This document shows positions 366-37,121 of a stretch of DNA of 64,000 nt, one piece after another. The notes under the pieces are model-generated. The model did not search any database. It was not told where the DNA came from and saw only the letters and a list, made by a program, of their open reading frames with translations. Within the stretch, counting starts at the first letter, position 1. Every line of letters begins with the position of its first letter. The translations under genes were made by a program, and so were the position numbers. The DNA is from Candidatus Woesearchaeota archaeon CG10_big_fil_rev_8_21_14_0_10_44_13 (GTDB lineage: Archaea; Nanobdellota; Nanobdellia; Woesearchaeales; UBA12501). The stretch is from the NCBI GenBank assembly GCA_002762985.1, contig PCXZ01000030.1, positions 11,692 to 75,691 on the forward strand, written 5' to 3'.

Positions 366-2507
366 CTACCTGCCCCAATCTATCCTGTAGATAATGATCC
401 TTCCTTGAAGAGCATTGGCAGTATCGCTAAAAAGTTCAAAATGCTCCAGACCCTTCCCTTTCATGAAGTACAGTTTTACAAATAATGTATTCAAAAGCTC
501 GGTTCTTACCAGGACAGACTTGTAAACGATGGTTTTGCCAGACTGCTCAGGATAGATCAGCAGGGAATATGGGCCTGTCTGGTCTGAGTGAAATATCTCT
601 TTCTTGCCGACTATAACCAAGGGGAAGGAAATCCCTTTGTAAGTCGTCTCTCCGTTTGTCATATCCACATCAAAATTTTCACCGCATATCATGTGATCTG
701 TTCCTTTTGTGAAACATTTTGACGGGGCGGATATCGAGGGTATTTTTGGGAACTGGAAAGGGCCTTGGTCATTGCTATACCAATCATTAAAATATAATAA
801 CAGATCGGTCTTCAATATAAGGCCGTTATCCAAGAGGATGAACGACTCTGGAGGACTGCAAAAATCATTGCTGAGGTTAGTTTTTGGATCTCCAGGCCAT
901 TGTCCGCAGTCCAGCATTTTTAAGATTGCCAAAGACTCAGATTCGTTGCCTTTGAACAAAGCTCTTGAAAACCAGTACATTCTCGGTTCAAAAGACCCTC
1001 CTATTCCATTATCCATCAAGACTTTCCTCTTTGAGGAGTGATGGTAAAGATATCCTTTGTCCCACCATAGGTTTATTATGGAATTATCGGATGAACCTTT
1101 CATAAGGTTATTGCCAACGTCATTGATCAGATCATTCATTGAGGGGGTTCTTTCTGATCTTTCGGACAATGAACTTGTCAATGGGGCGATCATCGCCAAA
1201 ATCAAGACTGATAAGACAATACAATTAACTATGCTCTTTGATTGAAATATCTTTATATTCCAAAAAAATTCTTTGAGATGACTGAATATGAAGGACAAGC
1301 CGTAAGATTGCATGATCGATAAAGGTATTGCAAAAAAGGATATGAACCTTATTGATTTATATCCTGCAAAAAACATTATCATGGACCACCACAATATGAA
1401 TAGGCAATATATTGATTTATTGTTTATCCTCTTATTAACCAATATGATCAACAGAGAAAATAATGTTAATGCCAGGTAGATGTAACCATTCACAATATAA
1501 GTCATGACATTCTCTCCTTTGCCTCTGGCCTCAACAGCCTGTTTGGCTGAGAATAGCTCGGTTGTAAGCGATACTGCGCCCAGGTATGTCTTATCATCTA
1601 TTAGCCCTATCCTAGTTTTAACGTGATGCACCTCGCTTTTTATATAATCCTTATCCTTCAATAAAAAGAATGATGTTGTCGATATTATCACCACTAAAGC
1701 GAGCATCAGGATGTGCTTCCTTGATCCGCTCCTGATTATTCTGGAAGTGAGGAAGTAAAGAAGGTAAAGAACAATAAAAGAGATCATTATCGCAAGTATG
1801 TAAAAATAACCGCTCCATGCAAACCTGAATAAAAGGATAGAAGGTATCATCAGACCGAAGCAGATGATTGATTTTGCCTTATTTTTGAATTCTAACCCCT
1901 CAAAGAAAAGCAATACTATGGCAAGCGAGAAAAAAAGATTGAGAAAATTAGTGTCTGTGAACCCGGGCTGGGTTGCTGTGAAGAATTGAGGATTGATGGC
2001 CAGCAGGAATGAGGCAAAGAAACCACCGATGTTGTTTGTCAATTTTCTGGCTATGAAAAAGATGAGGATTATAGAAAATAAAGAGAAGACGAAAGGAAGC
2101 CAAAATGCAGCCCTTATGAGGGTGAAACTGCCGTCGAATAACCTGAGCGCCTTGTATGAGAAGATCTCAAGATAAGGCAAGAGATATTTTGATTGCCTGC
2201 CATCAAGTATATTGTTGCCATTTATTATGCTTTCTGCTTCATCCAGAAAATAATAAGAATCGACACCATAAAGATAGAGGTCACCATTCTTGTCCTTGTA
2301 TATATCCTTAAGTTGCTGAGAAATGGCCATTTTATCAGCTGAATTGCTTGATTCAGCCCATTTGTCTGTTATCGGAAGATTTGCCGCATATAACCTTAGG
2401 ATTATCGCTGCCAGCAGGGAGATTGATAGGAGGATTACAATCTGGTACTTGAAAAATGGTGAGATTAGCTTGCCTTGCTGTTTTCCTTTATTTTTTGATT
2501 TGACCAT
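366..2507 (-). CDS. aglB: STT3/AglB-family oligosaccharyltransferase, divergent second paralog
   Basis: Multi-TM N-half and soluble C-domain. Motifs GVDSYY (EL1 Asp), FTDTN (DxD-like), SLTTE (TIxE/SVSE-like) and WWDKG (WWDYG-like). Shares LPITDxWAxSS with the AglB at 50744. Confidence 0.85.
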   Translation of the reverse strand: MVKSKNKGKQQGKLISPFFKYQIVILLSISLLAAIILRLYAANLPITDKWAESSNSADKMAISQQLKDIYKDKNGDLYLYGVDSYYFLDEAESIINGNNILDGRQSKYLLPYLEIFSYKALRLFDGSFTLIRAAFWLPFVFSLFSIILIFFIARKLTNNIGGFFASFLLAINPQFFTATQPGFTDTNFLNLFFSLAIVLLFFEGLEFKNKAKSIICFGLMIPSILLFRFAWSGYFYILAIMISFIVLYLLYFLTSRIIRSGSRKHILMLALVVIISTTSFFLLKDKDYIKSEVHHVKTRIGLIDDKTYLGAVSLTTELFSAKQAVEARGKGENVMTYIVNGYIYLALTLFSLLIILVNKRINNKSIYCLFILWWSMIMFFAGYKSIRFISFFAIPLSIMQSYGLSFIFSHLKEFFWNIKIFQSKSIVNCIVLSVLILAMIAPLTSSLSERSERTPSMNDLINDVGNNLMKGSSDNSIINLWWDKGYLYHHSSKRKVLMDNGIGGSFEPRMYWFSRALFKGNESESLAILKMLDCGQWPGDPKTNLSNDFCSPPESFILLDNGLILKTDLLLYFNDWYSNDQGPFQFPKIPSISAPSKCFTKGTDHMICGENFDVDMTNGETTYKGISFPLVIVGKKEIFHSDQTGPYSLLIYPEQSGKTIVYKSVLVRTELLNTLFVKLYFMKGKGLEHFELFSDTANALQGRIIIYRIDWGR

Positions 2508-2613
2508 TTAAATCGTTTATTTTTTAGGGGGGGTTATTAGGGTATGAACAACAAGGGCCTAAAATGGTAAGTTTTATAAAGATTGCGCATATCTATCAAT
2601 CCGTGAGTTTAAA

Positions 2614-3393
2614 ATGGCTTTCATTGAAGGTTTTCGGAAGTTATTAAGCAAGCTTAATATAATTGATTTTCTGATAATTTTATTGATGGTGGTTGTCATA
2701 GTGGCAGGCGAGCACTACATGAATAGGGCCCCTATTTTAGAATGGGCCAAAGTGAAGATCATTGTCAAAGAACAGCCGGATTATATCGTAAACAATATTG
2801 AGAGCGGGGATATATTGCTTGAAGGCGAAAAAATAATTGGTAGCATAGGAGAGATTGAAATAAAAACAAAAGAGAGGCAGAGCAATGACATGGAGATAGA
2901 AATAAATGCGTTTGTAGTCAACTCATCAAACAATCTTATTTTTATGGGCAATGACCTGAAAATAGGTTCGGATATCAATATAAAAACAAGAAAAGTAAGC
3001 TTAAAAGGGACTATCACGGATATTAATTATAATGAGACAACAAAAGAGGAATATGTACAAAAAACAATAAAGATGAAAATTACCGAAGTAGAGCCTTGGG
3101 CATCCGAGGTCATCCAAAAAGGGGTCAAGGAGCTCAATGATAAGAATAAGGTGATTGCTGAGATTGTTGACAAAAAAGAGTCTCCGCAGTATTTCATGTT
3201 CTGGACAGAAGATGGGGAATTCGTAAAGAAAGAGCACCCTTACTACAAAGAATTGATTCTTACTGTGGATATACTTGCTGATAAATCGGAAGATGGTCTG
3301 TTTTTCCATGATGAGAGGCTGAAAATAGGGGAAGGGATAAAAATAAAGACAGATAGGATGGATATTTCTGGTCGGATAATAAGTTTAGACTGA
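2614..3393 (+). CDS. DUF4330-like membrane-anchored protein with two tandem beta domains
   Basis: N-terminal KLNIIDFLIILL TM anchor. Internal duplication ending LKIGSDINIKTRKVSLKGTITDI and LKIGEGIKIKTDRMDISGRIISL. Confidence 0.65.
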   Translation: MAFIEGFRKLLSKLNIIDFLIILLMVVVIVAGEHYMNRAPILEWAKVKIIVKEQPDYIVNNIESGDILLEGEKIIGSIGEIEIKTKERQSNDMEIEINAFVVNSSNNLIFMGNDLKIGSDINIKTRKVSLKGTITDINYNETTKEEYVQKTIKMKITEVEPWASEVIQKGVKELNDKNKVIAEIVDKKESPQYFMFWTEDGEFVKKEHPYYKELILTVDILADKSEDGLFFHDERLKIGEGIKIKTDRMDISGRIISLD

Positions 3394-3398
3394 TTTAG

Positions 3399-3803
3399 AT
3401 GGCTAACCCTAAAATAATGCATAAAACTGATTTCGGGAAAAAGTTTACCAAAAGCTATTTTTTAAGCGAGCTTATAAACTTGATGCATGGTCTAGAGGAG
3501 TTAACATCCAACACCATTATTGGAAAGGGCATAATCTTTCTTTTTATGAAGTTCAGAAAAAGTTCCACATACAGATTTTTGAAAAAAGCAGAAAAACAAG
3601 AAGGGATATCCAATGGGTCAAAGATAATAAATTGTTCCGCTATTCTGATCCATAATGTCATGAACAAAGTAAAACTCTCTTTCATAGCGAAGTCATTGGC
3701 ATGGGTGCAAGACAGATTTTTAGAAAAACCCTTGTTTGCCATACTTGTAATAGTGCTGTTTGCGGCGATTGCAAGATATTCTTTGATGTTGGGTTTTATC
3801 TAG
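3399..3803 (+). CDS. Hypothetical protein with C-terminal TM helix
   Basis: 134-aa ORF in operon position, 5 bp after the DUF4330-like gene; hydrophobic C-terminus PLFAILVIVLFAAIA. Confidence 0.55.
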   Translation: MANPKIMHKTDFGKKFTKSYFLSELINLMHGLEELTSNTIIGKGIIFLFMKFRKSSTYRFLKKAEKQEGISNGSKIINCSAILIHNVMNKVKLSFIAKSLAWVQDRFLEKPLFAILVIVLFAAIARYSLMLGFI

Positions 3804-3863
3804 TTTAAAATGAAGATAATAGGAAAATATTTAAATAATGATAAAAATGGTTGATAGCACCAT

Positions 3864-4871
3864 ATGAAAAAAAAGATATTTATAACGGGTGTTGCTGGTT
3901 TTCTTGGATCTCATCTCGCTGATAGGATGATAGGAGAAGGCCACCATGTGATAGGATGTGATAGTCTCATAGGGGGGTATCTTGATAATGTCCCTCCAGA
4001 GGTAGAATTCTACCAGTATGACTGCAACTATCTTAATTCTATGAAGAAGATAACAAAAGAAGTGGATATAGTCTATCATTGCGCTGCCACAGCTTATGAA
4101 GGGCTGAGTGTTTTCAGCCCTTACATTGTCACAAAAAACGTGTTCCAGATAACTGCGTCTGTGCTGTCTGCATCAATATCAAATGGTATCAAAAGATTCG
4201 TGTTTACAAGTTCTATGGCCCGTTATGGAAAAAATAAGGTCCCTTTTGAAGAGTCGATGGCCCCGAAGCCCGAAGATCCGTATGGCATCGCAAAATACTC
4301 ATCTGAATTATTGATTGAAAACCTATGCGGGACCCATGGGATGGAGTATGTGATTGCTGTTCCGCATAATATAATAGGACCCAGACAGAAATATGACGAT
4401 CCGTACAGGAATGTCGCATCTATCATGATAAATATGATGCTGCAGGGAAAACAGCCGATAATATATGGGGATGGCAGGCAAAAAAGATGTTTCTCATTCG
4501 TAAATGACTGCATCCAATGTATGGAAAAGCTGGCTTTTCAGAAAAATGTTGCAGGAGAAGTGATAAACATAGGCCCTGACGAAGAATTCATCACCATAAA
4601 CGAGCTTGCAGAGAGAATAGCCAAACTTCTTGACTTCAAGCTGAAACCCAGGTATTTCTCTGACAGGCCCCAGGAGGTGAAGCTTGCAACCTGCTCAGCA
4701 GACAAGGCTAGAAAGCTTATAGGATACAAGACAGAATACAATCTTGATAAAGGCCTGAAGGAGATGATAGACTGGATAAAGCAAAGGGGCCCAAAACCAT
4801 TCAAATACCATATAGACCTCGAGATAATAAATAACAAAACGCCGGTCACATGGAAAGAAAAATTATTCTAA
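3864..4871 (+). CDS. NAD-dependent epimerase/dehydratase (extended SDR, UDP-glucose 4-epimerase-like)
   Basis: ITGVAGFLGSH Rossmann motif, PYGIAK (YxxxK), IYGDGRQKRCFSFV. Confidence 0.9.
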   Translation: MKKKIFITGVAGFLGSHLADRMIGEGHHVIGCDSLIGGYLDNVPPEVEFYQYDCNYLNSMKKITKEVDIVYHCAATAYEGLSVFSPYIVTKNVFQITASVLSASISNGIKRFVFTSSMARYGKNKVPFEESMAPKPEDPYGIAKYSSELLIENLCGTHGMEYVIAVPHNIIGPRQKYDDPYRNVASIMINMMLQGKQPIIYGDGRQKRCFSFVNDCIQCMEKLAFQKNVAGEVINIGPDEEFITINELAERIAKLLDFKLKPRYFSDRPQEVKLATCSADKARKLIGYKTEYNLDKGLKEMIDWIKQRGPKPFKYHIDLEIINNKTPVTWKEKLF

Positions 4872-5419: not shown

Positions 5420-5437
5420 TCTTTCATTTCCTGTGCC

Positions 5438-8679: not shown

Positions 8680-10110
8680 ATGGATTTAACAAAAAGATTG
8701 ATCAGGAATATAGCAAGTTTGTTTTGTTCAGAAGTAGTCAGCAGATTCCTGCTTTTTGTTGTCGGGATATATCTTGTGAGGTATCTTGGCGCAGAAGAGC
8801 TGGGAAAATACACATTTATAATCGTTTTTGTGGGTTTATTCGGGTTCATCGGTGATCTTGGTTTAAGCACGCTCCTGATAAGAGAGATAAGCTTTAACTT
8901 GAAAAAAACAAGGGAATATCTTGGTAATTTCCTGATGATACAGTTCATTCTTAGCATTATTGTTTTCTTTTTGATAATAATAACAATAAATGTTATTGAT
9001 TACCCTCCCCTAATCAAGAAAGCAGTTTATATAGCTGCGTCAGGCATATTTTTTGGCACTTTGCTCAAGCCATTTAGTTCGGTTTTAGCTGCCTACGAGG
9101 AGATGCATTATATGGCAGGGGTATCTTTTTTATCAAACCTTGCTAATGCCATTATGATAATAGGCATTATATGGCTAAAACAAGGTTTATTGGCGCTCAG
9201 CATAGTTTTTCTTATTTTTTATATATTCCAGTTCTTACTTTACGCTTTGTTTTGCTCCATAAAATGTGCAACACCTAAGTTTGTCATTAGATTTGAATTA
9301 TGGAAGCATCTTTCAAAAGAGGTCCTGCCTTTTTTTCTTATAATGTCTTTTGGCATACTCTACAATAAGATAGACATAATCATGCTCTCAAAGATGCAAG
9401 GGGATGCTGCAGTGGGTTATTATGGGGCAGCATACAAGATAATAGACCTTCTCATTGTTTTATCCTCCATACTGGGGGGGGTGATATTCCCGGTGTTATC
9501 AAAATATTTTGCAAAGAAAGATATGGTTTCATTAAAGAAAGTAGGGTATAAGGCCATAAAGTACCTTGCTTCCTTATCGCTGCCAATAGCAGTCGGAACC
9601 ACCTTGCTCTCTGCAAGGATAATAATCTTCCTTTTTGGGGCAGAGTTCGGGGCTTCTTCTGTGGCGCTTACAATCCTCATATGGGTGATCCCCCTGCAGT
9701 TCATATTAGGGATAATATATAACATATTATTAAGCGTAAAAAAAACAATATTGTACGCAAAGATAATGGGTTTTGGCGTTCTTCTTAATATCCTCTTAAA
9801 TCTGGTACTTATCCCAGAGTATAGCTATATTGGTGCAAGTATCTCGACGCTTGCCTCTGAATTGACAATATTCCTCATAGTGATGTTCATGGTAAGGAAG
9901 CATTTGTTTTTATGGACAATAATCAAAGATTATTTACCTATAATATTCTCTGTTTTGATCATGGCCGCATTCATTTTCATATCTAAAAGTCTTGAAGTAT
10001 GGGCCATAATCCTCCTGTCGGCAGCGGCATATTTCATATCTCTTTATTTGACAAAATTTTTAAAAGATGGCGAAATCGATTTATTCAGGGGGCTATTTTT
10101 CAAGAACTAG
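8680..10110 (+). CDS. Wzx/RfbX-type oligosaccharide flippase (MOP superfamily)
   Basis: About 12-14 TM segments; LVRYLGAEELGKY, DLGLSTLLIREI, KIDIIMLSKM, VGYYGAAYKI, YIGASISTL. Confidence 0.88.
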   Translation: MDLTKRLIRNIASLFCSEVVSRFLLFVVGIYLVRYLGAEELGKYTFIIVFVGLFGFIGDLGLSTLLIREISFNLKKTREYLGNFLMIQFILSIIVFFLIIITINVIDYPPLIKKAVYIAASGIFFGTLLKPFSSVLAAYEEMHYMAGVSFLSNLANAIMIIGIIWLKQGLLALSIVFLIFYIFQFLLYALFCSIKCATPKFVIRFELWKHLSKEVLPFFLIMSFGILYNKIDIIMLSKMQGDAAVGYYGAAYKIIDLLIVLSSILGGVIFPVLSKYFAKKDMVSLKKVGYKAIKYLASLSLPIAVGTTLLSARIIIFLFGAEFGASSVALTILIWVIPLQFILGIIYNILLSVKKTILYAKIMGFGVLLNILLNLVLIPEYSYIGASISTLASELTIFLIVMFMVRKHLFLWTIIKDYLPIIFSVLIMAAFIFISKSLEVWAIILLSAAAYFISLYLTKFLKDGEIDLFRGLFFKN

Positions 10111-10118
10111 GCAATAAA

Positions 10119-11579: not shown

Positions 11580-12475
11580 CAAACAGAACAAACAGGTGCA
11601 TTTTATGCGGCTCAGGCAGGAAATCAAAAGAGTATGCCATTGGGTCGAAGGGAATCTACAAGTGTGATTCTTGCGGCCTTATATTCACTCTCCCACAGAA
11701 CAGGCTAACCCAATTCTCAGAGAAACAGAAAGCGATTTATGAAGGGGAAATGTACAGAAAAATGTATTTCTCAATAAGGAAAAAGATATGCCATCGCGCA
11801 GAAAAAAGGCTGGAGGAGATATCAAGCTATAGAACAACAGGAAGTATACTTGATGAAGGGTGCAGTTATGGGTTCTTTTTGGAGGTTGCATCAGAAAAAG
11901 GATGGGAGAGCTACGGAACCGAGATAAATAAGCCTGCCGCAGATTATTCAAGAAAGCTTGGCGCAAAGGTTTCGAACTGTTTTACAGAGGATGCCAAGCT
12001 CAAAAAGAATTTTTTTGATGCCATCACCATGTGGGATGTCCTTGAACATACTGAAAATCCGGTCAAACACCTCATATTTGTTAGGGGGCTCCTGAAAAAA
12101 GGAGGTATTATTGCAGTACAACTTCCTAATATAGATAGCATTGCATCAAAGATTGCTGGGAAAAAATGGGCATGGCTTTGCCCCGACGATCATATGTATC
12201 ATTTTTCTGTAAAAACCCTGACGAGAGCGATCAAAGAAGCAGGATATGATATGATAGAGATGAGAACCTGGGAAGATCCGACAGTCATAGTCGATTCTAT
12301 TGTTGCGAGGATAAAATCCGACAATAATAAAGCCATGAATAGTGCAATAGACAAAATTGCAATACCTTTTTATATTTTCATGAATAAGGTGGGTTTTTTA
12401 TTCTACCCTTATCATTGGATCATCAAAAAATACAATAAAGGAGGCTTGATTCTTGCATATGCAAAAAATAAATGA
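11576..12475 (+). CDS. Class I SAM-dependent methyltransferase with N-terminal Zn-ribbon
   Basis: CILCGS...CDSCGL; ILDEGCSYGFFL, FDAITMWDVLEH, LKKGG, HMYHFS. Confidence 0.88.
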   Translation: MTNRTNRCILCGSGRKSKEYAIGSKGIYKCDSCGLIFTLPQNRLTQFSEKQKAIYEGEMYRKMYFSIRKKICHRAEKRLEEISSYRTTGSILDEGCSYGFFLEVASEKGWESYGTEINKPAADYSRKLGAKVSNCFTEDAKLKKNFFDAITMWDVLEHTENPVKHLIFVRGLLKKGGIIAVQLPNIDSIASKIAGKKWAWLCPDDHMYHFSVKTLTRAIKEAGYDMIEMRTWEDPTVIVDSIVARIKSDNNKAMNSAIDKIAIPFYIFMNKVGFLFYPYHWIIKKYNKGGLILAYAKNK

Positions 12476-13992: not shown

Positions 13993-14002
13993 GGAAGTAA
14001 AA

Positions 14003-15523: not shown

Positions 15524-15530
15524 GGATAGT

Positions 15531-17326: not shown

Positions 17327-17327
17327 T

Positions 17328-18134: not shown

Positions 18135-18155
18135 GCCTTACAAGGGGAAGTATCC

Positions 18156-22930: not shown

Positions 22931-22940
22931 TGGATAAAAA

Positions 22941-23735: not shown

Positions 23736-23746
23736 GATGAAGTGAA

Positions 23747-26811: not shown

Positions 26812-26854
26812 GCAGAGGGGGTTGGATTATTGGAATAATTAAATAATCAAACCG

Positions 26855-27991
26855 GTGCGTGAGAGGAAAAACATCATGAACAAGAAAGATAATAGGAAGA
26901 GGAAATCAGTTGCCATAATAATCTTAAATTGGAATGGGTGGAAAGATACAATTGAATGTCTGGAAAGCCTTTTTAAGATAGATTATCCTGATTATGATGT
27001 AGTTATTGTAGATAACAACTCAACAAATGGTTCTGTAGACAAGATAAAAGGATATCTTAAAGGAAAAACAGTAGTGAATTCAAAGTATTTCTCATATGAC
27101 CAGTCAAATAAGCCATTGAAATATATTGAAGTTGATGAAGAGTATATAAAGCCAGGAAAATGGGGGCATAAGGCGGTACGTGAAGGGGTATGCAGTCTTT
27201 TCAACGACATTTTTGACAGAAAAGGGAATATTATTATTATAAAGAACAAGCACAATTATGGCTTTGCGGAGGGGAATAATGTCGCAATTGACTTGATATT
27301 AAGGATGGGAAAACATGATTATATTAATCTCCTAAACAATGACACAATTGTTGAAAGAGAGTATCTTAAATTCTTGATAGAGTGTTTTGAAAAGAATAAA
27401 AGGGTAGGAATGACTGGGCCAAAGATATATTTCTATGATTATGAAGGAAAGGATGCAAAGAATAAGGACAAAGAAGAGGGTAATGATGATATAAGGATAT
27501 GGTTTGGGGGGGCAAAAAGGGATTATATCAAAGGATCATTCAAGCAGGAAGGATTATGTAAGGAGGATTCCCCAGAATCCAATATCATGAAAGAAGTGCC
27601 GTTCATAACCGGCTGCTGCCAGCTTATAAAGAGTGAGGTATTCAGAAAAGTGGGCTTGTATCCCGCAGACTATTATCTTTATTTTGACGATGTAGACTTC
27701 TGTCAGAGAGTAGGTGGTAAGTTTAAGATGGTATACTGCCCAAAGAGCGTGATATACCATAAGGTGAGCTCTTCTATAAAAAGCGACCGCCCAAAGCACA
27801 TATATTATTTTAACAGGGCAAGGCTGATATACCTCATGAAAAACTTCAATCTATCAAACCTTATCCCCCTCATGTTTTTTGCGATGTCAAGGTCTTTTTT
27901 AATAACATATTACTTATTTACAAATAAGAGGGATAATCTTACGGCATTGTTCAGGTCATTTTTAATATGGAAAGAGAGGGTAGAATATTGA
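26855..27991 (+). CDS. GT2 glycosyltransferase
   Basis: IIILNWNGWKDTIECLESL, VDNNSTNGS, NYGFAEGNN, LLNNDT, YFDDVD; the start may be ATG 26876. Confidence 0.9.
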   Translation: MRERKNIMNKKDNRKRKSVAIIILNWNGWKDTIECLESLFKIDYPDYDVVIVDNNSTNGSVDKIKGYLKGKTVVNSKYFSYDQSNKPLKYIEVDEEYIKPGKWGHKAVREGVCSLFNDIFDRKGNIIIIKNKHNYGFAEGNNVAIDLILRMGKHDYINLLNNDTIVEREYLKFLIECFEKNKRVGMTGPKIYFYDYEGKDAKNKDKEEGNDDIRIWFGGAKRDYIKGSFKQEGLCKEDSPESNIMKEVPFITGCCQLIKSEVFRKVGLYPADYYLYFDDVDFCQRVGGKFKMVYCPKSVIYHKVSSSIKSDRPKHIYYFNRARLIYLMKNFNLSNLIPLMFFAMSRSFLITYYLFTNKRDNLTALFRSFLIWKERVEY

Positions 27992-28067: not shown

Positions 28068-29264
28068 ATGAAGATTTGTTTTATCGCCCCGTCATACAAC
28101 CGGAAAGAATGCGGTGTAGCAGATTATACGGGCATACTTGCAGATAGATTGAGAAACGAAGGCCATGAGACCTCCATAATTGCATCGGATGGCCATGTGG
28201 AAGACAGCCGCAGAATAAAAGGGATAAGAATATACCCCTTAGGCAAGAGGTGGGGGTTTAGGGATTATATCAAGATATCGAGGCTGATGAAAGAAATCAA
28301 ACCAGACATCCTCCATATACAATACCAAAGCTTTAACTGCAATAACAATCCGATGATCAATGCATTGCCTTGGCTATTGAAGTACAGGTTTAAAAAAAAC
28401 AAGATGAAGATAATTGTGACATTGCATGACCTTAGCGCACCTTTCTTCATGGGCATAAATGCAAGGATTTTCAGAAAGATAGGCCAAGCAATCTGGCTTA
28501 CGTTAATCATGCTTTATTGCGATTCATTTGCGATGTCGAATGAATATGAATGGATGATTGTAGAGAGGAGCATGCCTGGTTTTTTACATGAAAAGATAAA
28601 AAGAAAATTCTATCTAATTCCCATCCCGTCAAGCGTACCTGTGCTAAAAATGAGTGAGAACGATATTAATCTGAAAAGAAGAGAGATGGGGTTCAAGGCA
28701 GACGAGAAAGCGGTCATCTTTTTTGGATTTGTCAGGTCAGGCAAGGGAATAGATATCCTTCTTCGCTCGATGGGGGGTATCATCCAAAGAGGGTATAAAG
28801 TGAAACTGGTGGTATTAGGGGGGGTGTATGAGAAAGAGTACCATAAGGTGATGTTAAGATTATCTAAACAGATGGGCATATCTAAAAATGTTTTGTGGAC
28901 AGGTTATAGGTCGCAGAAGGAGACATCTGAAATGCTCCATACGGGTGAGATTTGCGTGATGCCTTATGAAGATGGGGTTGCAACTTATAGAAGCAGTTTT
29001 TCCACTGTGGCAGAACATGGCCTTCCGACAATCACTACAAAAGGAAAGATTATACCTAAAGGATTAAAGGATGGATTTAATGTATTATTATTTGAAGCGA
29101 AGGATAATGCAACCCTGACAAGATTGATCGTTTCCCTTCTTGATGATGAGAAGATGAGAGAAAATCTTGCCAAAAACATAAAAAGATACTCACATACCTT
29201 ATCTTGGGAAAACACCATAAGAAGGATTGAGAAGATGTATGGAATGTGTGCAAAGGAAAAATGA
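28068..29264 (+). CDS. GT4 glycosyltransferase
   Basis: CGVADYT, PDILHIQY, VTLHD, FGFVRSGKGID, GT-B C-terminal domain. Confidence 0.88.
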   Translation: MKICFIAPSYNRKECGVADYTGILADRLRNEGHETSIIASDGHVEDSRRIKGIRIYPLGKRWGFRDYIKISRLMKEIKPDILHIQYQSFNCNNNPMINALPWLLKYRFKKNKMKIIVTLHDLSAPFFMGINARIFRKIGQAIWLTLIMLYCDSFAMSNEYEWMIVERSMPGFLHEKIKRKFYLIPIPSSVPVLKMSENDINLKRREMGFKADEKAVIFFGFVRSGKGIDILLRSMGGIIQRGYKVKLVVLGGVYEKEYHKVMLRLSKQMGISKNVLWTGYRSQKETSEMLHTGEICVMPYEDGVATYRSSFSTVAEHGLPTITTKGKIIPKGLKDGFNVLLFEAKDNATLTRLIVSLLDDEKMRENLAKNIKRYSHTLSWENTIRRIEKMYGMCAKEK

Positions 29265-30349
29265 TTGAACAAATTGCAGTAAAGTTTATGAAATGGGTAA
29301 TGAGGCTGGGAAGATTATTCAACAGCTCGAAAAACTTATTTGACAAGAAATCTGTGAATAAGATCTTAGTCATAGACACAAATAATCTTGGGGATTTCTT
29401 TTTCACAATCCCCTCTATAAAGGCGATAAGAAAGGAATTCCCGAATGCTGACCTAAGAGTGGTTGTCTGGAAAGAGGTAGCGCCCATATCGAAAAAAATG
29501 AAGTGGATAGACCAAACTGTCATCTGTGAGAAAAAGAGCATGATAAGAAATGCAGGCCTGATAAATATGCTAAGGAAAGAAAGATTCGACCTTGTGATAA
29601 ACATGCAGCTCGACATAAGGAAGATCCTTTTAGCCTACATCATAAATGCAAAGTTCTCGATAGGGCATGATATAAGGGAGTTTGGTTTCATGCTGTCAAG
29701 ATCCGTTCCGCTCAGGCTCAGATACTGGCCAGAGGTGTATCTTGACCTCATCAGGCCGATCACCCAAAAAAATTTGGATAATAACATAACATTTGATATT
29801 TACAGGAAGGATTATGATTTTATAGAAAGATATGTCAAGAAGAAAGGGCTTGTAAAAAAAGATTCGCTGGTCGGCATACATCCTGGGGTCGGAGAGTTTA
29901 TCCCTCAGAAAAGATGGGAAGAGAAAAAATTTGCGGAGTTATGTGACATACTCCAAGAGAAGTACGGACTGAGTGTGCTATTAGTGGGTTCCTCATCTGA
30001 AACGGAGATGATAAGGCGCATAAGGGATGCAATGAAGACAAAATGCATAGAGGTATGCGATTTGAGCATAGACAGGCTGCCAGCACTTATAAGCAGATAT
30101 AAACTATTTGTAGGGGTGGATTCCGCGCCGTTACATATAGCTACAGCGCTCAATGTACCTTCCATAGTTTTATGCGGGCCACAGGACCCAAATATGGTGC
30201 TTCCTGCAAGAAAGAACATGATTGTATTAAGAAAAGACGTAAAATGCAATCCATGTTATAAAGAAGAGAAGATAAAGTGCGATGACAACATCTGCATGAA
30301 ATCCATACAAGTAGGTGAGGTAGTATCGGCCATAAGAAAGATGATATGA
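29261..30349 (+). CDS. GT9 ADP-heptose:glycan heptosyltransferase (WaaF/WaaQ-like)
   Basis: KILVIDTNNLGD, AIRKEFPNA, IHPG...KRW, VGVDSAPLHIATALNVPSIVLCGP, CNPC...CM; these are GT9 signature blocks. Confidence 0.9.
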   Translation: MIEQIAVKFMKWVMRLGRLFNSSKNLFDKKSVNKILVIDTNNLGDFFFTIPSIKAIRKEFPNADLRVVVWKEVAPISKKMKWIDQTVICEKKSMIRNAGLINMLRKERFDLVINMQLDIRKILLAYIINAKFSIGHDIREFGFMLSRSVPLRLRYWPEVYLDLIRPITQKNLDNNITFDIYRKDYDFIERYVKKKGLVKKDSLVGIHPGVGEFIPQKRWEEKKFAELCDILQEKYGLSVLLVGSSSETEMIRRIRDAMKTKCIEVCDLSIDRLPALISRYKLFVGVDSAPLHIATALNVPSIVLCGPQDPNMVLPARKNMIVLRKDVKCNPCYKEEKIKCDDNICMKSIQVGEVVSAIRKMI

Positions 30350-31845
30350 GGGAAAGGGTAAGTAAGTATAGATTAGGTGCATTCTTATTTTTTGCACTTG
30401 TAGGGCTCATACTGGGTGCTATGTCTTTTTTCTTGCCTTCAGGACTATTCAAGATAATGCTGTTAGTCGTGCTTTCCTGCATAATCCTGGTTCATCTCAT
30501 GCAAAAAGGGATATTCTATCTTATAACTCTTGCAATATTCTTCAGTATGACGCTGCCAAAAGCAGGTTTTGAATTTAATGATATACCTTTCACAATAGGG
30601 AATGTCTTGCTTGCGGCCTCATTCGTGCTGTGGGTAATAAAATTAACAAAAGAGCATGTAATGACGGGCCTGATACGTCTGAAAAAAACGGTGATTGACA
30701 AGCCATTCATGCTTTATGTGGTCATGGCATTGATATCAGTTTTCATCTCTCTCTATTTCAATGCCAACCCCTACAACATAATCTTTGAGGCGATAATATT
30801 TTTAGGTTATGCTTTTGTGTTCTATCTTATTGTGAACAATATAAAAGATGAGAAACAAATAAGGCTGGTCTTTCTGCTTTTGACAGCATCGGCGTTTCTG
30901 GTTTCCATATACGGCATAATGCAATATTTCATAGACCCAAAAAAGATATCTATCCCATTCTTAACATACCCTGCGGATCACCCCTCATTGTATTTATTCC
31001 TCGACAGGAACAGGAGAATTTTCTCTACTTTTGTTAACCCAAACCTGCTTGGGAATTATCTTGTGATGTTCATGTTCATACCATTGGGCATTTTTTTAAA
31101 TGAAAAAAGAGACTCAAGGTACATTTATCTCATTCTTTTTGCAATAACGATGTATTGCCTTTTCCTTACGGGGTCAAGAGGGGCGTTGATTGGTTTTATA
31201 GCGGGGATGTTTGTGCTGTTTTTAACTGACGGATTCAATATAAAGAGGGTATTCAAGTATTTATTCGTTGTATTGGTGCTTGTGTCATTGGCCCTTATCA
31301 TCAGCCCAAGGATCATAGAATTTAACACAAACACTTTCAGCGATTTCTCCATGGGTGTGAGGGTCCAGAATTATAAGAGGATATTTGAGACGATAGAAGA
31401 ATACCCATTTGGTATGGGGCTCGGCACGTCTTCTGGAATTGATTATCTTTCAGAGATACAGATTATAGAAGTTGGCCCAGGAATGATCTGGCAGACAGGG
31501 GTGCACAGCCTTTATGGCTCGATAATCATAAAGATGGGAATCTTTGGCCTTTTGTTCTTTTTATGGATCATGAGAAAGGTTTACTCGTCTTTTTTTGCCG
31601 GCCTAGAACCATTAGAAAGAAGGGAGGGACGGTTTTCCTTCTTAAGAGGGTGCCTGATAGGGGCAATAGCGGGCCTTTCAGCAAACCTCATACATTCGTT
31701 CATGGAGTTCGCGTGGGTTTTCCCCCACCTAGCTGAAGATTTTTGGATTTTGGTTGGATGCATTGTTGCATTATCAAACATAATAATAAAAGAATCGTCA
31801 AAATCAGGTCGGAACAAAAAAAGAGGTCATCTTATCGATAAATAG
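30346..31845 (+). CDS. O-antigen ligase/polymerase family (WaaL/Wzy_C) membrane protein
   Basis: About 12 TM segments; RIFSTFVNPNLLGNYL, LTGSRGALIG, GVRVQNY, GMGLG, GVHSLY (conserved His), LIHSFME. Confidence 0.85.
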   Translation: MRERVSKYRLGAFLFFALVGLILGAMSFFLPSGLFKIMLLVVLSCIILVHLMQKGIFYLITLAIFFSMTLPKAGFEFNDIPFTIGNVLLAASFVLWVIKLTKEHVMTGLIRLKKTVIDKPFMLYVVMALISVFISLYFNANPYNIIFEAIIFLGYAFVFYLIVNNIKDEKQIRLVFLLLTASAFLVSIYGIMQYFIDPKKISIPFLTYPADHPSLYLFLDRNRRIFSTFVNPNLLGNYLVMFMFIPLGIFLNEKRDSRYIYLILFAITMYCLFLTGSRGALIGFIAGMFVLFLTDGFNIKRVFKYLFVVLVLVSLALIISPRIIEFNTNTFSDFSMGVRVQNYKRIFETIEEYPFGMGLGTSSGIDYLSEIQIIEVGPGMIWQTGVHSLYGSIIIKMGIFGLLFFLWIMRKVYSSFFAGLEPLERREGRFSFLRGCLIGAIAGLSANLIHSFMEFAWVFPHLAEDFWILVGCIVALSNIIIKESSKSGRNKKRGHLIDK

Positions 31846-31860
31846 ATTAAAAAGAAGCAA

Positions 31861-33027
31861 ATGAAAAATAATAAAGATAAGAAAAGGAAAAAGAAGATAT
31901 TATTCATAGAGAATAAATATGAGATATCTGGTGGACAGATGGTGTTGATCAATCTACTTAGGAATATTGACAGATCCATATTCGAGCCATATGTAGTTAC
32001 GCAAAGGAAAGGTGAATTGTACAATGTGTTAAGGGAGATGGGAGTTAAAGTGATGTTTCTAAGACTGGATTTTCTGCCAGTACAGTATAACCGTTGCCCT
32101 TACGTATCCCCTTGGGGGGTATATAAACTGATGAAGTTAATAAAAAAGTATGATATAGACATTGTACATTCGAATAACCTCTACTCAAACAAATATGGGG
32201 CTATTGCGGCCAAGATAGCCGGGATCCCTTCTGTATGGACAATACACAACGAATATAAGAAAAATCCAATATTAAGAATGCTTTATAGGATCACAAACAG
32301 GGTAATTTTTGTGTCTAAAAGAGTAGGTGTCATATTCCAGGATCCTGAGAATAATAAAGGAAGAGTGATATATAATGGGGCAGATACAAAGAAGTTTTTC
32401 AAAAGGCTTCCGAAAAGGGAGGATTATCTAAGATTTGGGATTAAAAAAGGCTCTTTTGTTGTGGGGATGATAGCAAGGATACATCCTTTTAAGGGGTATG
32501 AATGCTTATGCAAGAGCATAGCAATAGTATCAAAAAAATACCCTGAAGTTGTCGTCCTTGCCCTTGGAAAGACTGTTGAAGGCAGCAGATATGATATGAG
32601 CATAAAGGGGCTCATAAAAAAGCTTGGAATAGAGAAAAATTTCATATTCGGCGGTTTCGAAAAAGATGTAAGTAAAATAATCCCATTATTCTCTATCCTT
32701 GTGCTCCCTTCAGTAAAAGGAGAAGGATTTCCCCTTGTGATCCTGGAAGCCCAGGCCATGGGAAAACCTGTGGTCTCTTCAAGGATTGCCGGAGTGCCCG
32801 AGATGATTGAGGAAGGAAAAAATGGGTTGATGGTTAAGCCAGGGGATTATAGGGATATTGCAAAAAAGATAATTATACTCATAGAGGATCCGGATCTACG
32901 CAAAAAGATTGGTGAAGCAGGGAGAAAAACAGTGAATAGGGATTTCACGCTAAAAAAGACAGTAAGGGAAACTGAAAAACTGTATATTGAGGTTTTGAAT
33001 GAGTGGAAAAGCAAAAAAAGAGATTAA
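31861..33027 (+). CDS. GT4 glycosyltransferase
   Basis: ISGGQ, IVHSN, VIYNGAD, ARIHPFKG, EGFPLVILEAQAMGKPVV. Confidence 0.92.
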   Translation: MKNNKDKKRKKKILFIENKYEISGGQMVLINLLRNIDRSIFEPYVVTQRKGELYNVLREMGVKVMFLRLDFLPVQYNRCPYVSPWGVYKLMKLIKKYDIDIVHSNNLYSNKYGAIAAKIAGIPSVWTIHNEYKKNPILRMLYRITNRVIFVSKRVGVIFQDPENNKGRVIYNGADTKKFFKRLPKREDYLRFGIKKGSFVVGMIARIHPFKGYECLCKSIAIVSKKYPEVVVLALGKTVEGSRYDMSIKGLIKKLGIEKNFIFGGFEKDVSKIIPLFSILVLPSVKGEGFPLVILEAQAMGKPVVSSRIAGVPEMIEEGKNGLMVKPGDYRDIAKKIIILIEDPDLRKKIGEAGRKTVNRDFTLKKTVRETEKLYIEVLNEWKSKKRD

Positions 33028-33883
33028 AACTTGTGGTGCAAATAATATGGGATACGGATTAGAGTATACAAAATGCAACCTATGCGGATCAGGGAGTTAT
33101 GATATACTCCAAAACCCGGATTCGTTCAGGATTGTAAAATGCAAGAAGTGCGGTTTGATATATGTAAACCCCAGACCGGATCAGAAATATATAAAAGAAT
33201 TTTATTCGAAGACCTCCAACTATGCCGAATGGCACAAGCAGAAAGAAGGGAGAGAAAAGATGTGGGAGAAGAGGGTAAAAGAGCTGGTCGGGGTTGCAAA
33301 TGAGAATAATATCCAAAAGGGCAGCATTCTTGATATAGGCTGTGGTATAGGGACTTTTCTTTCTATGATGAAAGACAAAGGTTGGCGATGCTCGGGGACT
33401 GAGATATCTGAAATAGCCTTAGATTCCTTAGAACGTGGTATAGATGTGTTTGTTGGTCCCATTGAGAACATGAAACCGAATAAGAGATTCGACATAATAA
33501 CTATATGGCATGTTCTTGAACATCTTCCTGACCCATTAAAGACCCTTAATAAGGCAAATTCCCTTTTAAAGGATGAGGGGATGATAGTGGTTGCTGTCCC
33601 TAATGCAGAAGAGAGGATTTTCCTGTTCCTGAAGACCACCATCAGGATGAAAAGACAGTATCTTTTCTCAAAAGATTCAAAAGAGATACATCTCTATCAT
33701 TTCTCGCAAAGCAGCCTAAGAAAGATGATGGAGAAAGCAGGTTTTACCATAATAAAAGAAGCAGTTGACACTCCAGGCATAACATTTGCAAGAAGATTTT
33801 TTGATGATATTGCAGGATTTGTTTTTAGGATTACTGGGAAAAATATCGGAATTGCGCTTAAGATATATGCAAAAAAACAGTAA
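32999..33883 (+). CDS. Class I SAM-dependent methyltransferase with N-terminal Zn-ribbon
   Basis: CNLCGS...CKKCGLIYVNPRP; ILDIGCGIG, FDIITIWHVLEH, HLYHFS; the start may be ATG 33047. Confidence 0.88.
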   Translation: MSGKAKKEIKTCGANNMGYGLEYTKCNLCGSGSYDILQNPDSFRIVKCKKCGLIYVNPRPDQKYIKEFYSKTSNYAEWHKQKEGREKMWEKRVKELVGVANENNIQKGSILDIGCGIGTFLSMMKDKGWRCSGTEISEIALDSLERGIDVFVGPIENMKPNKRFDIITIWHVLEHLPDPLKTLNKANSLLKDEGMIVVAVPNAEERIFLFLKTTIRMKRQYLFSKDSKEIHLYHFSQSSLRKMMEKAGFTIIKEAVDTPGITFARRFFDDIAGFVFRITGKNIGIALKIYAKKQ

Positions 33884-33905
33884 AATAATAATAGGGGGAT
33901 AAAAG

Positions 33906-35054
33906 ATGATAAGGATAGGCATTGATGCAAGAGGGATAAAGGGAAGGATGACTGGCATTGGAAGGTATACTTATAACCTAATAGAGAATATAGCAAAAGA
34001 GGATAAAGAGGATGAATATGTCCTTCTTGTTAATGATGAAGTGCAATTGAAGGAATTCACAGTTAAGAATGGGAATTTTAGGATCAGAAAAACATGGGTG
34101 AAGCCCATATCGATATTTGAACAGTTTTTCCTCCCTTTCCTGTTACTAAAAGAAAAAATAAGCGTTTTCCATGGCTGCGGAGGAAGCCTGCCTTTGTGGC
34201 AGCCAAAAAAGTGTATCATAACTGTGCATGACATAACCGGCTTCAAGATTGATATTAAGAACAGCATATTGGGGATCCCTCTTTTAAAAATTTACATAAA
34301 GTTCTTTGTGAAGAATGAGGCAAAGAAAGCCAGGAGGGTCGTTACAGACTCTGAAAGCACTAAAAAAGATATTGTTGACGAACTTGGTATCAAACCTGAA
34401 AAGATAAATGTAGTTTATCTTGCTGCTTCAGACCAGTTCAGGGTGATCAGCAAGAAGGCCTCTAAAGAATATGTAAAGAAGAGATTTAACATAAAAAAGC
34501 CGTTCATACTGTATCATGGAAACAAAAAACCGCACAAGAATATAATAAAGATAATCCAAGCTTTCAGCAGGTTGGACAGGAAAAAAAGTTATAATCTTGT
34601 GATAACGGGAAAAGACGACTCCTCTCATTCTGAAACTGACATGTCCTCCATAAAAAGGGAGGTCAAGAGAAGAGATGTAGATGAGGAAGTGGTATTCACA
34701 GGTTATGTCTCCGATGAAGACGCTGTTCACCTTTATAATTCTGCAGAGGTGTTCGTATTCCCGAGTTATTATGAGGGATTCGGGCTGCCTGTGCTTGAAG
34801 CGATGAAATGCGGGTGCCCAGTGATCACATCAAACATCTCAAGTCTTCCTGAAGTCGCCGGAAATGCTGGGATCCTTGTGGATCCAGATTCTGTTGAAGA
34901 TATAAAGAACAGCATAGAGCGCGTATTATCGGATAAAAGCCTAAGAGAAAAGATGCGGAAAAAAGGGATTGCACAATCTAAGAGATTCAGCTGGAAGACT
35001 GCTGCAAAAGAGATATTGTCTGTCTACAGGGAGGTAGCCGATGAAAAAGATTGA
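33906..35054 (+). CDS. GT4 glycosyltransferase (mannosyltransferase-like)
   Basis: RIGIDAR, TGIGRY, TVHD, KPHKN, FPSYYEGFGLPVLEAMKCG. Confidence 0.92.
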   Translation: MIRIGIDARGIKGRMTGIGRYTYNLIENIAKEDKEDEYVLLVNDEVQLKEFTVKNGNFRIRKTWVKPISIFEQFFLPFLLLKEKISVFHGCGGSLPLWQPKKCIITVHDITGFKIDIKNSILGIPLLKIYIKFFVKNEAKKARRVVTDSESTKKDIVDELGIKPEKINVVYLAASDQFRVISKKASKEYVKKRFNIKKPFILYHGNKKPHKNIIKIIQAFSRLDRKKSYNLVITGKDDSSHSETDMSSIKREVKRRDVDEEVVFTGYVSDEDAVHLYNSAEVFVFPSYYEGFGLPVLEAMKCGCPVITSNISSLPEVAGNAGILVDPDSVEDIKNSIERVLSDKSLREKMRKKGIAQSKRFSWKTAAKEILSVYREVADEKD

Positions 35055-36156
35055 AGTGTTGCATATAGGCAAGTATTACCATCCTGTAAAAGGGGGCATA
35101 GAGAACCATATGATCAACCTATTCAGCAGGATAAAAGATAAGGTTGAACTCAAAGTGATTGTTTCAAATACATGTTGCAGTAAGGAGAGGTCTGTAATTA
35201 ACGGTGTTGCTATAACCCGATTGTCAAGGATTATTGAGCTGTTCTCAACACCGATAAATCCAAGCCTATTTTGGGAGATAAAGGGATTCAAAGGGGACAT
35301 AATACACCTGCATCTTCCGAACCCTTTCGCAAATCTCGCATATCTGCTTGCAAACCCCAAGAAAAAATTGGTCATAAAATACCATAGCGACATAATAAAA
35401 CAAAGATTTCTTCTCAGACTATACTCTCCTTTCCTTAAGATGTTGCTTAGGAAAGCAGACAAGATAATAGCAACATCACCCATTTACGTTGAAAGCTCTC
35501 CAATCCTCAAGGGATTCAAGGATAAATGTGTGGTAATACCTTTAGGGGTGGATGTAAGTGGTTTTAAGCTTGATGATGGAAGAAGAAAGATATTGGAGAA
35601 CATAAAGAAAATGCACAATAAAAGAAAGATTGTGCTTTTTGTAGGCAGGCTTGTCTATTACAAAGGGGTTGAATATCTTATAAAGGCGCACAAAGATGTC
35701 GATGCAGACCTGATAATAATAGGAAAAGGCCCTCTTGAGAATGGATTAAAGACTATGACTAAAAAACTTGGGATTGATAAGAAGGTCTTCTTTTATGGGG
35801 AAGTTGCTGACCTGGTGCCACTTTATCACGCCTGTGACGTTTTTGTCCTGCCATCTATAGAGAGAAGCGAGGCTTTTGGGATTGTGCAGCTTGAAGCGAT
35901 GGCTTGCAGCAAGCCTGTTGTTTCTTCAAATCTAAATTCAGGTGTGGTCTATGTCAATATGGACAGAAAAACAGGGATTGTTGTTGAACCAAAAGACAGC
36001 AAAGAGCTTTCAGAAGCGATAAACTATCTTATGAAAAACCCGTCTGTGGCAAAAAAGTATGGAAGATTCGCAAAGATGAGGGTAGAGAAAGAGTTCACAA
36101 ACGAGATCAATGCCAATAAAGTGATAAGGCTATACAACCGACTTTTAGAAAGATGA
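35041..36156 (+). CDS. GT4 glycosyltransferase
   Basis: HIGKYYHPVKGGIE, HLHLPNP, YHSDI, VGRLVYYKG, RSEAFGIVQLEAMAC. Confidence 0.92.
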   Translation: MKKIEVLHIGKYYHPVKGGIENHMINLFSRIKDKVELKVIVSNTCCSKERSVINGVAITRLSRIIELFSTPINPSLFWEIKGFKGDIIHLHLPNPFANLAYLLANPKKKLVIKYHSDIIKQRFLLRLYSPFLKMLLRKADKIIATSPIYVESSPILKGFKDKCVVIPLGVDVSGFKLDDGRRKILENIKKMHNKRKIVLFVGRLVYYKGVEYLIKAHKDVDADLIIIGKGPLENGLKTMTKKLGIDKKVFFYGEVADLVPLYHACDVFVLPSIERSEAFGIVQLEAMACSKPVVSSNLNSGVVYVNMDRKTGIVVEPKDSKELSEAINYLMKNPSVAKKYGRFAKMRVEKEFTNEINANKVIRLYNRLLER

Positions 36157-36161
36157 TTTAA

Positions 36162-37115: not shown

Positions 37116-37121
37116 TTTTAC

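Follow-up and report, generated by a model that had tools for sequence, protein, structure and literature searches.

The window analysed here is a 64,000-nucleotide stretch (positions 11692-75691) of the 153-kb contig C18 of G000, a metagenome-assembled genome (MAG) of a host belonging to the Woesearchaeales (DPANN), which comprises 1.515 Mb on 36 contigs and is 98% complete. The left part of this window is occupied by a block of reduced G+C content (366-36160) consisting of 31 tightly packed genes (98.2% coding), among which those for a GT9 heptosyltransferase, nine other glycosyltransferases (GTs), four B12-binding radical-SAM enzymes (B12-rSAM), five methyltransferases, two carbamoyltransferases, Wzx-like and MurJ-like flippases and a Wzy_C protein were recognized, while a short paralog of the oligosaccharyltransferase AglB (STT3 family) is encoded at its left end. 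It is probable that this block now fills a variable glycosylation island of the replacement type in this Woesearchaeales genome, as is suggested by a step in base composition, by the gene families and the completeness of a sugar-donor pathway, by conserved anchors that enclose non-homologous content in a relative, and by the lack of mobile-element hallmarks.

The G+C content of the block was found to be 39.06%, as compared to 44.62% for the remainder of the window and 44.4% for the genome, i.e., a step of ~5.5 percentage points, and the block represents the lowest of all 35-kb windows across the assembly. The G+C content at third codon positions (GC3) ranges from 0.32 to 0.49 in 30 of the 30 open reading frames (ORFs) called in the block (mean 0.427), against a mean of 0.533 (standard deviation 0.091) for the other 1226 ORFs (Mann-Whitney p=1.6e-12), while that of codon positions 1 and 2 amounts to 0.37 in the block versus 0.41. 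The correlation of tetranucleotide z-scores with the genome is 0.850 for the block, the corresponding values for 65 other 36-kb pieces having a mean of 0.919 and a minimum of 0.858. A least-squares two-segment fit placed change points at approximately positions 200 and 36400 of the window, the former corresponding to the short aglB gene at its 3' end and the latter to the convergent junction at 36157-36161; this fit was used in place of the cumulative-GC minimum, which proved misleading as a border finder owing to another AT-rich patch that lies beyond the end of the window. An earlier note on this DNA had proposed the low-GC block from hand counts of six 60-bp lines, with a shift near the convergent junction. 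Its counts (45, 25, 35, 22, 52 and 47%) were reproduced exactly, its location of the shift agrees with the fitted change point, and the sliding-window GC, GC3 and tetranucleotide analyses that it had suggested did reveal a compositional step; the block is real, yet the contrast of 22 versus 52% overstates the true step, since 60-bp lines are noisy (standard deviation ~7 points).

Low G+C content as a general trait of glycan genes was considered and rejected. Glycan genes span ~10-120 kb of contig C18, and within this range only the block and a small AT-rich patch at 75-78 kb are compositionally odd; the other ~70 kb of glycan genes display an ordinary G+C content, for which reason function alone does not explain the low value.

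The site occupied by the block was compared with that in the relatives G001, G008, G015 and G004. In G001, a member of another genus of the same family, the genes for the short AglB (43% identity) and the DUF4330 protein (34%) are arranged head to head as in G000, and at ~32 kb from the short AglB gene there follow, in the same order as in G000, the genes for AglH (52%), a geranylgeranyl-reductase-like protein (60%), an NTP-transferase (66%), surface proteins (58, 47 and 35%), the canonical AglB (47%) and a GT2 (65%), both anchors being located on a single 155-kb contig. The majority of the cargo genes of G000 lack a match (E<1e-10) in this G001 region. The G001 interval harbours a P-type ATPase gene, AbiEii toxin genes and a ~20-kb cassette with a GC3 of 0.27-0.51 versus ~0.55-0.60 in its flanks, which encodes a DegT aminotransferase, a hexapeptide acetyltransferase, a GFO/MocA oxidoreductase, a UDP-glucose dehydrogenase, AsnB, a WbmS-like deacetylase, a GT4, a radical-SAM enzyme and methyltransferases, and whose predicted sugar chemistry is thus different.

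G008, which represents a third genus, encodes a short AglB (38%) in a low-GC zone that reaches the contig end and has in common with the G000 block a GT2-rSAM(55%)-methyltransferase-GT2 module and a carbamoyltransferase. A second contig of G008 carries the genes for the canonical AglB, a surface protein, AglH (67%), GDP-mannose 4,6-dehydratase (gmd; 76%) and the rmd-like SDR (53%), after which the contig ends, so that the macro-arrangement agrees with that of G000, albeit across two contigs. In G015, AglH (70%) is encoded beside gmd (83%), while in two more relatives with a short AglB (metagenome assemblies) yet other genes surround it, clearly glycan-related in one of the two. In a family-wide search for the AglH anchor, the matches other than that of G001 were located on short contigs or near contig ends, and a metagenome scan with the AglH-like anchor returned 80 loci (best 67% identical) with little synteny.

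Conserved bounds, equivalent yet non-homologous content and a compositional deviation that is also evident in G001 and G008 are among the properties by which replacement islands are recognized; the site is conserved, its content is replaced and its occupant is low in G+C in each genome examined. Exchangeability at genus scale is well supported by this comparison of sequences. The earlier note had described the block as an exchangeable locus and had suggested synteny in relatives as a check; the anchors retained by G001 around an unrelated low-GC cassette bear this out at the level of genera, while exchange itself is deduced from them.

Two side observations concern G001. Between its short AglB gene and the cassette (L014:1603-7990) are two AbiEii toxin-family genes, a gene for an AAA_14/DUF4143 ATPase and one for a P-type cation ATPase, which implies that defence and toxin-antitoxin genes use the same variable site. 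In addition, its public record reads 'uncultured Methanosarcinales archaeon', yet it is assigned to one family with Woesearchaeota/Nanoarchaeia MAGs, and the label is probably wrong.

The features of the window between the short and the canonical AglB genes are listed in Table 1.

Table 1. Genes and boundaries from the short to the canonical aglB gene, in window coordinates, with supporting profile matches (scores in bits, given as score / cut-off where a cut-off applies).
Positions	Strand	Feature	Support and remarks
366..2507	-	Short AglB/STT3 paralog, 713 aa	PF02516 76 / 24.5; left end of low-GC block
2614..3803	+	DUF4330 protein (259 aa) and 134-aa protein	PF14221 89; divergent from short AglB
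3864..4871	+	NAD-dependent sugar epimerase/dehydratase (SDR)	PF01370, PF16363
4868..8530	-	ADP-L-glycero-beta-D-manno-heptose operon: gmhB 4868-5419, hldD 5438-6397, hldE 6423-7892, gmhA 7961-8530	
8680..10110	+	Wzx-like MOP flippase	PF01943 97; Wzx_EPS match weak
9999..19607	+	B12-rSAM, methyltransferase, GT2, methyltransferase, B12-rSAM, GT2, methyltransferase, methyltransferase, B12-rSAM	PF02310+PF04055, class-I methyltransferase, PF00535
19600..21180	+	MurJ-type flippase	PF03023 231; TIGR01695 239.3 / 235.55
21161..25435	+	Carbamoyltransferase, GT2, carbamoyltransferase (NodU/CmcH family)	PF02543+PF16861 in both carbamoyltransferases
25351..27991	+	Fourth B12-rSAM, GT2	Pfam
28068..30349	+	GT4, GT9 heptosyltransferase	PF00534; PF01075 111.8 / 22
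30346..31845	+	Wzy_C membrane protein (polymerase, ligase or O-oligosaccharyltransferase family)	PF04932 68 / 31.7
31861..36156	+	GT4, methyltransferase, GT4, GT4	Pfam; GC3 0.39-0.44; right end of low-GC block
36157..36161	.	Convergent junction, 5 bp	Compositional and synteny boundary
36162..38180	-	SDR (rmd-like), GDP-mannose 4,6-dehydratase (gmd)	gmd TIGR01472 529 / 415
38324..40140	- / +	GT2 (-), AglH-like polyprenyl-phosphate HexNAc-1-P transferase (39136-40140, +)	PF00535, PF00953
40186..50405	-	Geranylgeranyl-reductase family protein, NTP-transferase, three large S-layer-like surface proteins	Pfam
50639..53527	+	Canonical long AglB, 962 aa	PF02516 142; GC3 0.59

Within the block, the predicted ADP-heptose pathway set GmhA/HldE/GmhB/HldD is complete: the NCBIfam scores of GmhB (NF006506, 191.6 for a cut-off of 178), HldD (TIGR02197, 407.8 for 274.6) and both domains of the bifunctional HldE (366.7 for 345 and 202.6 for 181.5 in domains I and II, respectively) exceed the curated cut-offs, while that of GmhA (TIGR00441, 185.7 for 209.45) is slightly below. 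The Wzx-like flippase gene is the first of a co-directional plus-strand array of 23 genes that ends at position 36156 and in which the genes overlap or are less than 80 bp apart. The radical-SAM, methyltransferase and GT2 paralogs of the block are 27-37% identical to one another, those of the array at 9999-19607 showing 29-37% identity, and are therefore either old duplicates or independent recruits; recent tandem duplication of these modules was rejected on the same grounds. The two carbamoyltransferases exhibit 34% mutual identity, and the fourth B12-rSAM enzyme is 55% identical to the radical-SAM protein of the G008 island. With respect to curated families, the GT9 protein scores under the lipopolysaccharide (LPS)-specific equivalog cut-offs and the SDR that precedes the heptose operon below every NCBIfam equivalog cut-off; no NCBIfam match was obtained for the DUF4330 protein or the 134-aa protein, and neither a PDB sequence match nor a specific NCBIfam match for the Wzy_C protein, for which a role as an archaeal O-oligosaccharyltransferase is a possibility. 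As a side observation, at least nine B12-binding radical-SAM genes are present in the 1.5-Mb G000 genome, six of them on C18, which implies dependence on cobalamin.

The Pfam and NCBIfam assignments are as the earlier note had described the gene content, with the exception that the block does not encode an initiating phosphoglycosyltransferase. Pfam searches returned neither an initiating enzyme of the PF00953/PF02397 type nor a Wzz chain-length regulator within 366-36160, and the block thereby differs from a Wzx/Wzy-dependent locus, in which an initiating enzyme, Wzx, Wzy and Wzz would all be encoded. Likewise, tRNA genes, Rfam matches, integrases and transposases were not found in the block, nor were repeats of at least 14 bp common to both of its borders, and the block consequently does not display the recombinase, tRNA/att site and direct repeats of an integrative mobile island.

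To the right of the junction, gene content is largely shared with relatives. The rmd-like SDR and gmd genes exhibit a GC3 of 0.50-0.55 and are found beside AglH in G008 and, in the case of gmd, in G015, while this pair is absent from this place in G001. The AglH-like gene, orthologs of which are 51-70% identical in G001, G008, G015 and G004, is the sole gene near the block whose product is recognisable as an initiating enzyme. The three large surface proteins are likely glycosylation targets, and genes for dTDP-rhamnose follow to the right of the canonical AglB. To the left of the block are genes of ordinary GC3 for a B12-rSAM enzyme, an Acyl_transf_3 protein and a PAP2 phosphatase, followed by housekeeping genes. 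The geranylgeranyl-reductase-family gene (40186-41316; TIGR02032 158.9 for a cut-off of 158.8), which adjoins the AglH-like gene in G001 and G004 also (60% identity), is a candidate gene for the saturase that acts on the polyprenol/dolichol carrier of the glycan.

G000 possesses two STT3 genes, both of which are located inside the window, and orthologs of its short AglB are present in G015 (54% identity), G001 (~44%) and G008 (38%). When 27 AglB homologs of 19 genomes were placed in a maximum-likelihood tree, canonical and short proteins were resolved as two clades, each with 100/100 support. Orthologs of the canonical AglB occur in nearly all relatives and their tree follows taxonomy, genus g2 being monophyletic and G000 pairing with G004. 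In the short clade, G000 is paired (100/100) with the C154 copy of G015, though the canonical tree places G015 and G001 in one genus, and the short copies of G015 and G001 are 43.6% identical. The short-AglB tree thus conflicts with simple vertical descent, and fits either joint transfer with the cassettes or allelic or paralogous lineages of long standing. The GC3 of the short AglB gene is 0.46 in G000, 0.45 in G008 and 0.58 in G001. It was further observed that G015, a 76%-complete MAG, carries two short-AglB genes, on contigs C154 and C33, whose products are 54% and 32% identical to that of G000; these may represent genuine paralogs, or else different alleles of the island that stem from strains binned together. 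The short clade is very rare, a search of 5.8 billion proteins having returned five relatives at E<=1e-30, and it is known from approximately six sequences, which all belong to one Woesearchaeales family.

The short AglB retains D83 (the EL1 Asp), D185 and E317 (the EL5 Glu), and lacks a ~70-residue external insertion. Its D185-T-N (DTN) motif, in place of the canonical DTD, is found in all well-aligned members of the short clade except the C33 copy of G015 (DNY), and the acceptor motif reads WWDKG in G000, G015 and G008, WWHNG in G001 and WWTNG in the second G015 copy, while the motifs of the canonical AglB are DTD, TVAE and WWDFG. A PDB sequence search with the short AglB returned no match, for which reason its structural relatives were sought with a profile and with a predicted fold. 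The predicted model is of moderate quality (pLDDT 69, pTM 0.62), and the top 21 hits of a Foldseek search of the PDB with this model were all PglB/AglB/STT3 proteins (E-values down to 5e-14, TM 0.40-0.48), among them A. fulgidus AglB, with PDB entries 3waj and 7e9s. From its motifs and the model, the short AglB is taken to be an STT3-family protein under purifying selection, its oligosaccharyltransferase activity and its acceptor being assignments by homology. A further STT3-family protein, 22% identical over residues 64-711, was found in a Candidatus Omnitrophota MAG (L025) by means of short-AglB peptide patterns.

These data modify the picture given in the earlier note, which had presented the cassette as self-contained, with its own oligosaccharyltransferase, and as having passed through an archaeon. 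'Self-contained' is too strong, since the AglH-like initiating gene belongs to the conserved flank. STT3 homology of the 'own oligosaccharyltransferase' stands, yet its acceptor-binding and metal motifs are altered, so that its function is a matter of homology. The short AglB is not simply cargo but a positional anchor which relatives share, though its tree conflicts with that of the canonical AglB and its composition in G000 and G008 is island-like. Passage through an archaeon is true and nearly trivial, the short AglB clade being known from this family alone and the nearest relatives of the cargo being DPANN.

With regard to the origin of the cargo, an HldE kinase domain scoring over the curated cut-off is present in 42 of 201 sampled Woesearchaeales genomes, while for HldD this applies to one of 17 genomes of the family, namely G000. 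The best matches of HldE are at most 57% identical; the top named ones are from Nanoarchaeota/Woesearchaeota, with bacteria a few points lower. The 57% match is located on a metagenome contig of 38.4% G+C, which also encodes HldD (73%) and GmhB (67%) in the order Wzx, methyltransferase, GT4, GT9, GmhA, HldE, B12-rSAM, HldD, GmhB, GT9, methyltransferase. Similarly, the best HldD match in GTDB genomes (68%) lies in a local GC dip of G339, a member of another Woesearchaeales family, where its neighbours are the canonical AglB, a carbamoyltransferase, GT4, GmhA, HldE, a radical-SAM enzyme, a methyltransferase, GT9, a methyltransferase, a radical-SAM enzyme and GT2. On the strength of these matches, the heptose/rSAM/methyl/carbamoyl cassette is best described as a recurrent, patchy Woesearchaeales module. 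Most sampled Woesearchaeales loci are of 27-40% G+C, and a cassette imported from this pool would therefore be AT-richer than the 44% genome, with which the sign of the deviation agrees.

From these data, the exchange events, the donor pool, the structure of the glycan and the transferase that uses it may be pictured as follows. The island site is situated between the lineage-specific short AglB gene with its DUF4330 partner on one side and the block of AglH-like, polyprenol-reductase-like, surface-protein and canonical AglB genes on the other, and different genera of the family have unrelated glycan cassettes there, each lower in G+C than its host genome. Such cassettes may derive from a common, lower-GC Woesearchaeales gene pool and be exchanged through recombination within the conserved flanks or close to them; homologous recombination in the flanks, as for replacement flexible islands (PMC4033161), is the most plausible mode of exchange, rather than a site-specific mobile element. 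In the present occupant, GmhA, HldE, GmhB and HldD would convert sedoheptulose-7-phosphate into ADP-L,D-heptose, and an oligosaccharide linked to polyprenyl (dolichyl) phosphate would be synthesized, probably begun by the AglH-like enzyme of the flank or by a GT2. Since the sole initiating transferase that can be recognised is encoded in the conserved flank, the cassette is not entirely self-contained. The oligosaccharide would be elongated by four GT4 enzymes, four or five GT2 enzymes and the GT9 heptosyltransferase, and tailored by five SAM methyltransferases (O-methylation), four B12-rSAM enzymes (probably C-methylases) and two O-carbamoyltransferases. Flipping would be performed by the Wzx-like and/or MurJ-like flippase, with possible polymerisation or ligation by the Wzy_C protein, and transfer onto the neighbouring surface proteins by the short and/or canonical AglB. 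More tentatively, and with considerable doubt, the short AglB clade may constitute a second oligosaccharyltransferase that is dedicated to the variable cassette and altered in donor and/or acceptor specificity, its alleles travelling with the cassettes or being older than them.

Several observations weigh against a variable island as outlined above. The block is the most deviant 36-kb piece by tetranucleotides, but mildly so, and no recent donor was found among the sampled sequences, the best cargo identities being 57-73%; together with the old paralogs, this fits a long residence. In G001, the short AglB gene is located ~10 kb from the cassette, beyond the P-type ATPase and toxin-antitoxin genes, and since it has a core-like GC3 and is set apart in this manner, the link between AglB and cassette is not tight. 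The left flank past the short AglB gene is not syntenic with G001. Finally, the genome and metagenome collections yielded no relative of the same genus or species (best AglH 67-70%), and replacement is therefore visible only over genus-level distances, at which many processes remodel loci.

Some of these points are equally expected if the locus has been inherited vertically and evolves fast, its low G+C content reflecting a local regime, for instance weak codon selection on genes of low expression or AT-biased mutation, and its genes being gained, lost and diverged gradually in place. The mild tetranucleotide signature, the lack of a donor above 57-73% identity, the age of the paralogs and the low G+C content of this site in all three family genomes, whatever their content, are in keeping with such a history, which is nevertheless judged rather improbable: adjacent glycan genes of the same kinds have a normal GC3, most G000 cargo is without a homolog in the G001 region, HldD scores over its cut-off in one of 17 genomes of the family yet recurs in other families with similar neighbours, and the short and canonical AglB trees are in conflict. 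The discreteness of the block and its sharp borders would also suit an integrative mobile element carrying glycan genes, such as an integrated plasmid, a provirus or an island resembling an integrative and conjugative element; this is largely refuted, and deemed very unlikely, by the missing integrase, transposase, tRNA and border repeats, by the filling of the block with glycan-related genes and by a right border that consists of a convergent gap of 5 bp. A chimera produced by assembly or binning, in which DNA of a lower-GC organism was joined into the contig, has to be considered for a MAG of this many contigs, and is hardly credible given that the block is interior to a 153-kb contig, that both of its sides are linked on one G001 contig and that its tetranucleotide signature is still host-like.

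A different issue, compatible with island status, is whether the cassette serves AglB at all. It is conceivable, though we lean against it, that the product is a Wzx/Wzy-type polysaccharide or lipoglycan, or an O-glycan attached by the Wzy_C protein, rather than an AglB N-glycan, in which case the short AglB would be unrelated to the cassette or have a non-canonical acceptor. The presence of both flippases and a Wzy_C protein, the DTN motif and the variable WWD motif (WWHNG in G001) of the short AglB, and the 10-kb distance of the latter from the G001 cassette point in this direction, while the lack of a chain-length regulator or export machinery, the constant position of the short AglB amid glycan genes, its retention of D83, D185, E317 and the oligosaccharyltransferase fold, and the large surface proteins encoded next door argue for AglB.

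A number of side observations relate to the remainder of the genome. Homologs of the GT2, GT4, SDR, radical-SAM and flippase genes of G000 are nearly all located on C18, which constitutes a glycan 'super-locus' of more than 100 kb, with small secondary glycan clusters on C10 (16-20 kb, also low in G+C) and C24 (122-134 kb). The AT-rich patch that extends from window position 63803-64000 onward (C18:75-78 kb) comprises three ORFs with a GC3 of 0.17-0.24 and, at 24-32% G+C per kb, represents the genome's lowest 2-kb region. The whole contigs C4 (6.8 kb, 37.3% G+C) and C35 (9.7 kb, 39.2% G+C) have an island-like G+C content, and no homologs of the glycan families of the window were found on them at E<1e-8.

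Variable surface-glycan islands are regarded as one of the chief routes by which prokaryotes escape viruses and alter cell-cell recognition, and DPANN episymbiosis depends on surface contact with hosts; to our knowledge, such islands are well documented in bacteria and haloarchaea and hardly at all in DPANN. The conserved anchors described here could serve to fish alternative cassettes from metagenomes, the short AglB clade with its altered catalytic and acceptor motifs is open to biochemical testing, and the bacterial-type ADP-heptose/GT9 module is an ordinary, patchy part of the Woesearchaeales glycan toolkit. If the short AglB is indeed dedicated to the variable cassette, these DPANN cells would run conserved and swappable protein glycosylation side by side.

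The closest known counterparts are the replacement flexible genomic islands that comprise bacterial O-antigen and capsule loci (Lopez-Perez et al. 2014, PMC4033161). The G000 island resembles these in its fixed site with conserved flanks, its equivalent yet non-homologous glycan gene sets, its lower G+C content, its Wzx/Wzy-type parts and the lack of an integrase, while it is distinguished by its DPANN host and by an STT3-family transferase in the locus. Furthermore, the present comparison is across genera (flanks 35-66% identical at the protein level) and not strains, whereas recent exchange in replacement islands is defined by single-nucleotide polymorphism peaks at the boundaries and by identical cassettes in different clonal frames (PMC4033161). 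Among archaea, variable low-GC N-glycosylation is known from the agl and 'alternative' clusters of Haloferax (Shalev et al. 2018, PMC5867893) and the cell-wall island of Haloquadratum walsbyi (PMC4535781). As in these haloarchaea, surface-glycan content varies among relatives, the G+C content is markedly lower, AglB trees are incongruent with marker trees, and a conserved plus a variable pathway in one cell is possible. Unlike Haloferax, which has a single AglB and in which the transferase of the second pathway is unknown, G000 has a second, divergent AglB at the island edge, and its cargo differs from that of the haloarchaeal clusters in including ADP-heptose, GT9, B12-rSAM and carbamoyltransferase genes.

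Multiple AglB paralogs are found in Euryarchaeota, for example the long and short AglBs of Archaeoglobus fulgidus. The co-occurrence of short and long STT3 paralogs in one genome, the short form being without part of the external domain, is common to A. fulgidus and G000, whereas the Woesearchaeales short clade differs from the Archaeoglobus short AglB in its DTN second metal motif, its variable WWD motif and its great rarity. In bacteria, GmhA, HldE, GmhB and HldD, together with the GT9 enzymes WaaC, WaaF and WaaQ, make up the heptose pathway of the LPS inner core. The block matches this pathway in that the four enzymes are at or very near curated models and are accompanied by a GT9; it differs in that a lipid A/Kdo acceptor system is lacking, in that the GT9 does not reach LPS-specific cut-offs and in the widespread but patchy distribution of the pathway in the Woesearchaeales. 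Heptose itself is already known from the N-glycan of Thermoplasma (PMC11407970). The block is accordingly to be seen as an archaeal counterpart of swappable O-antigen and capsule loci and not as a new kind of system, although it stands out by its DPANN host and by the rare AglB with altered motifs that is encoded at the island edge.

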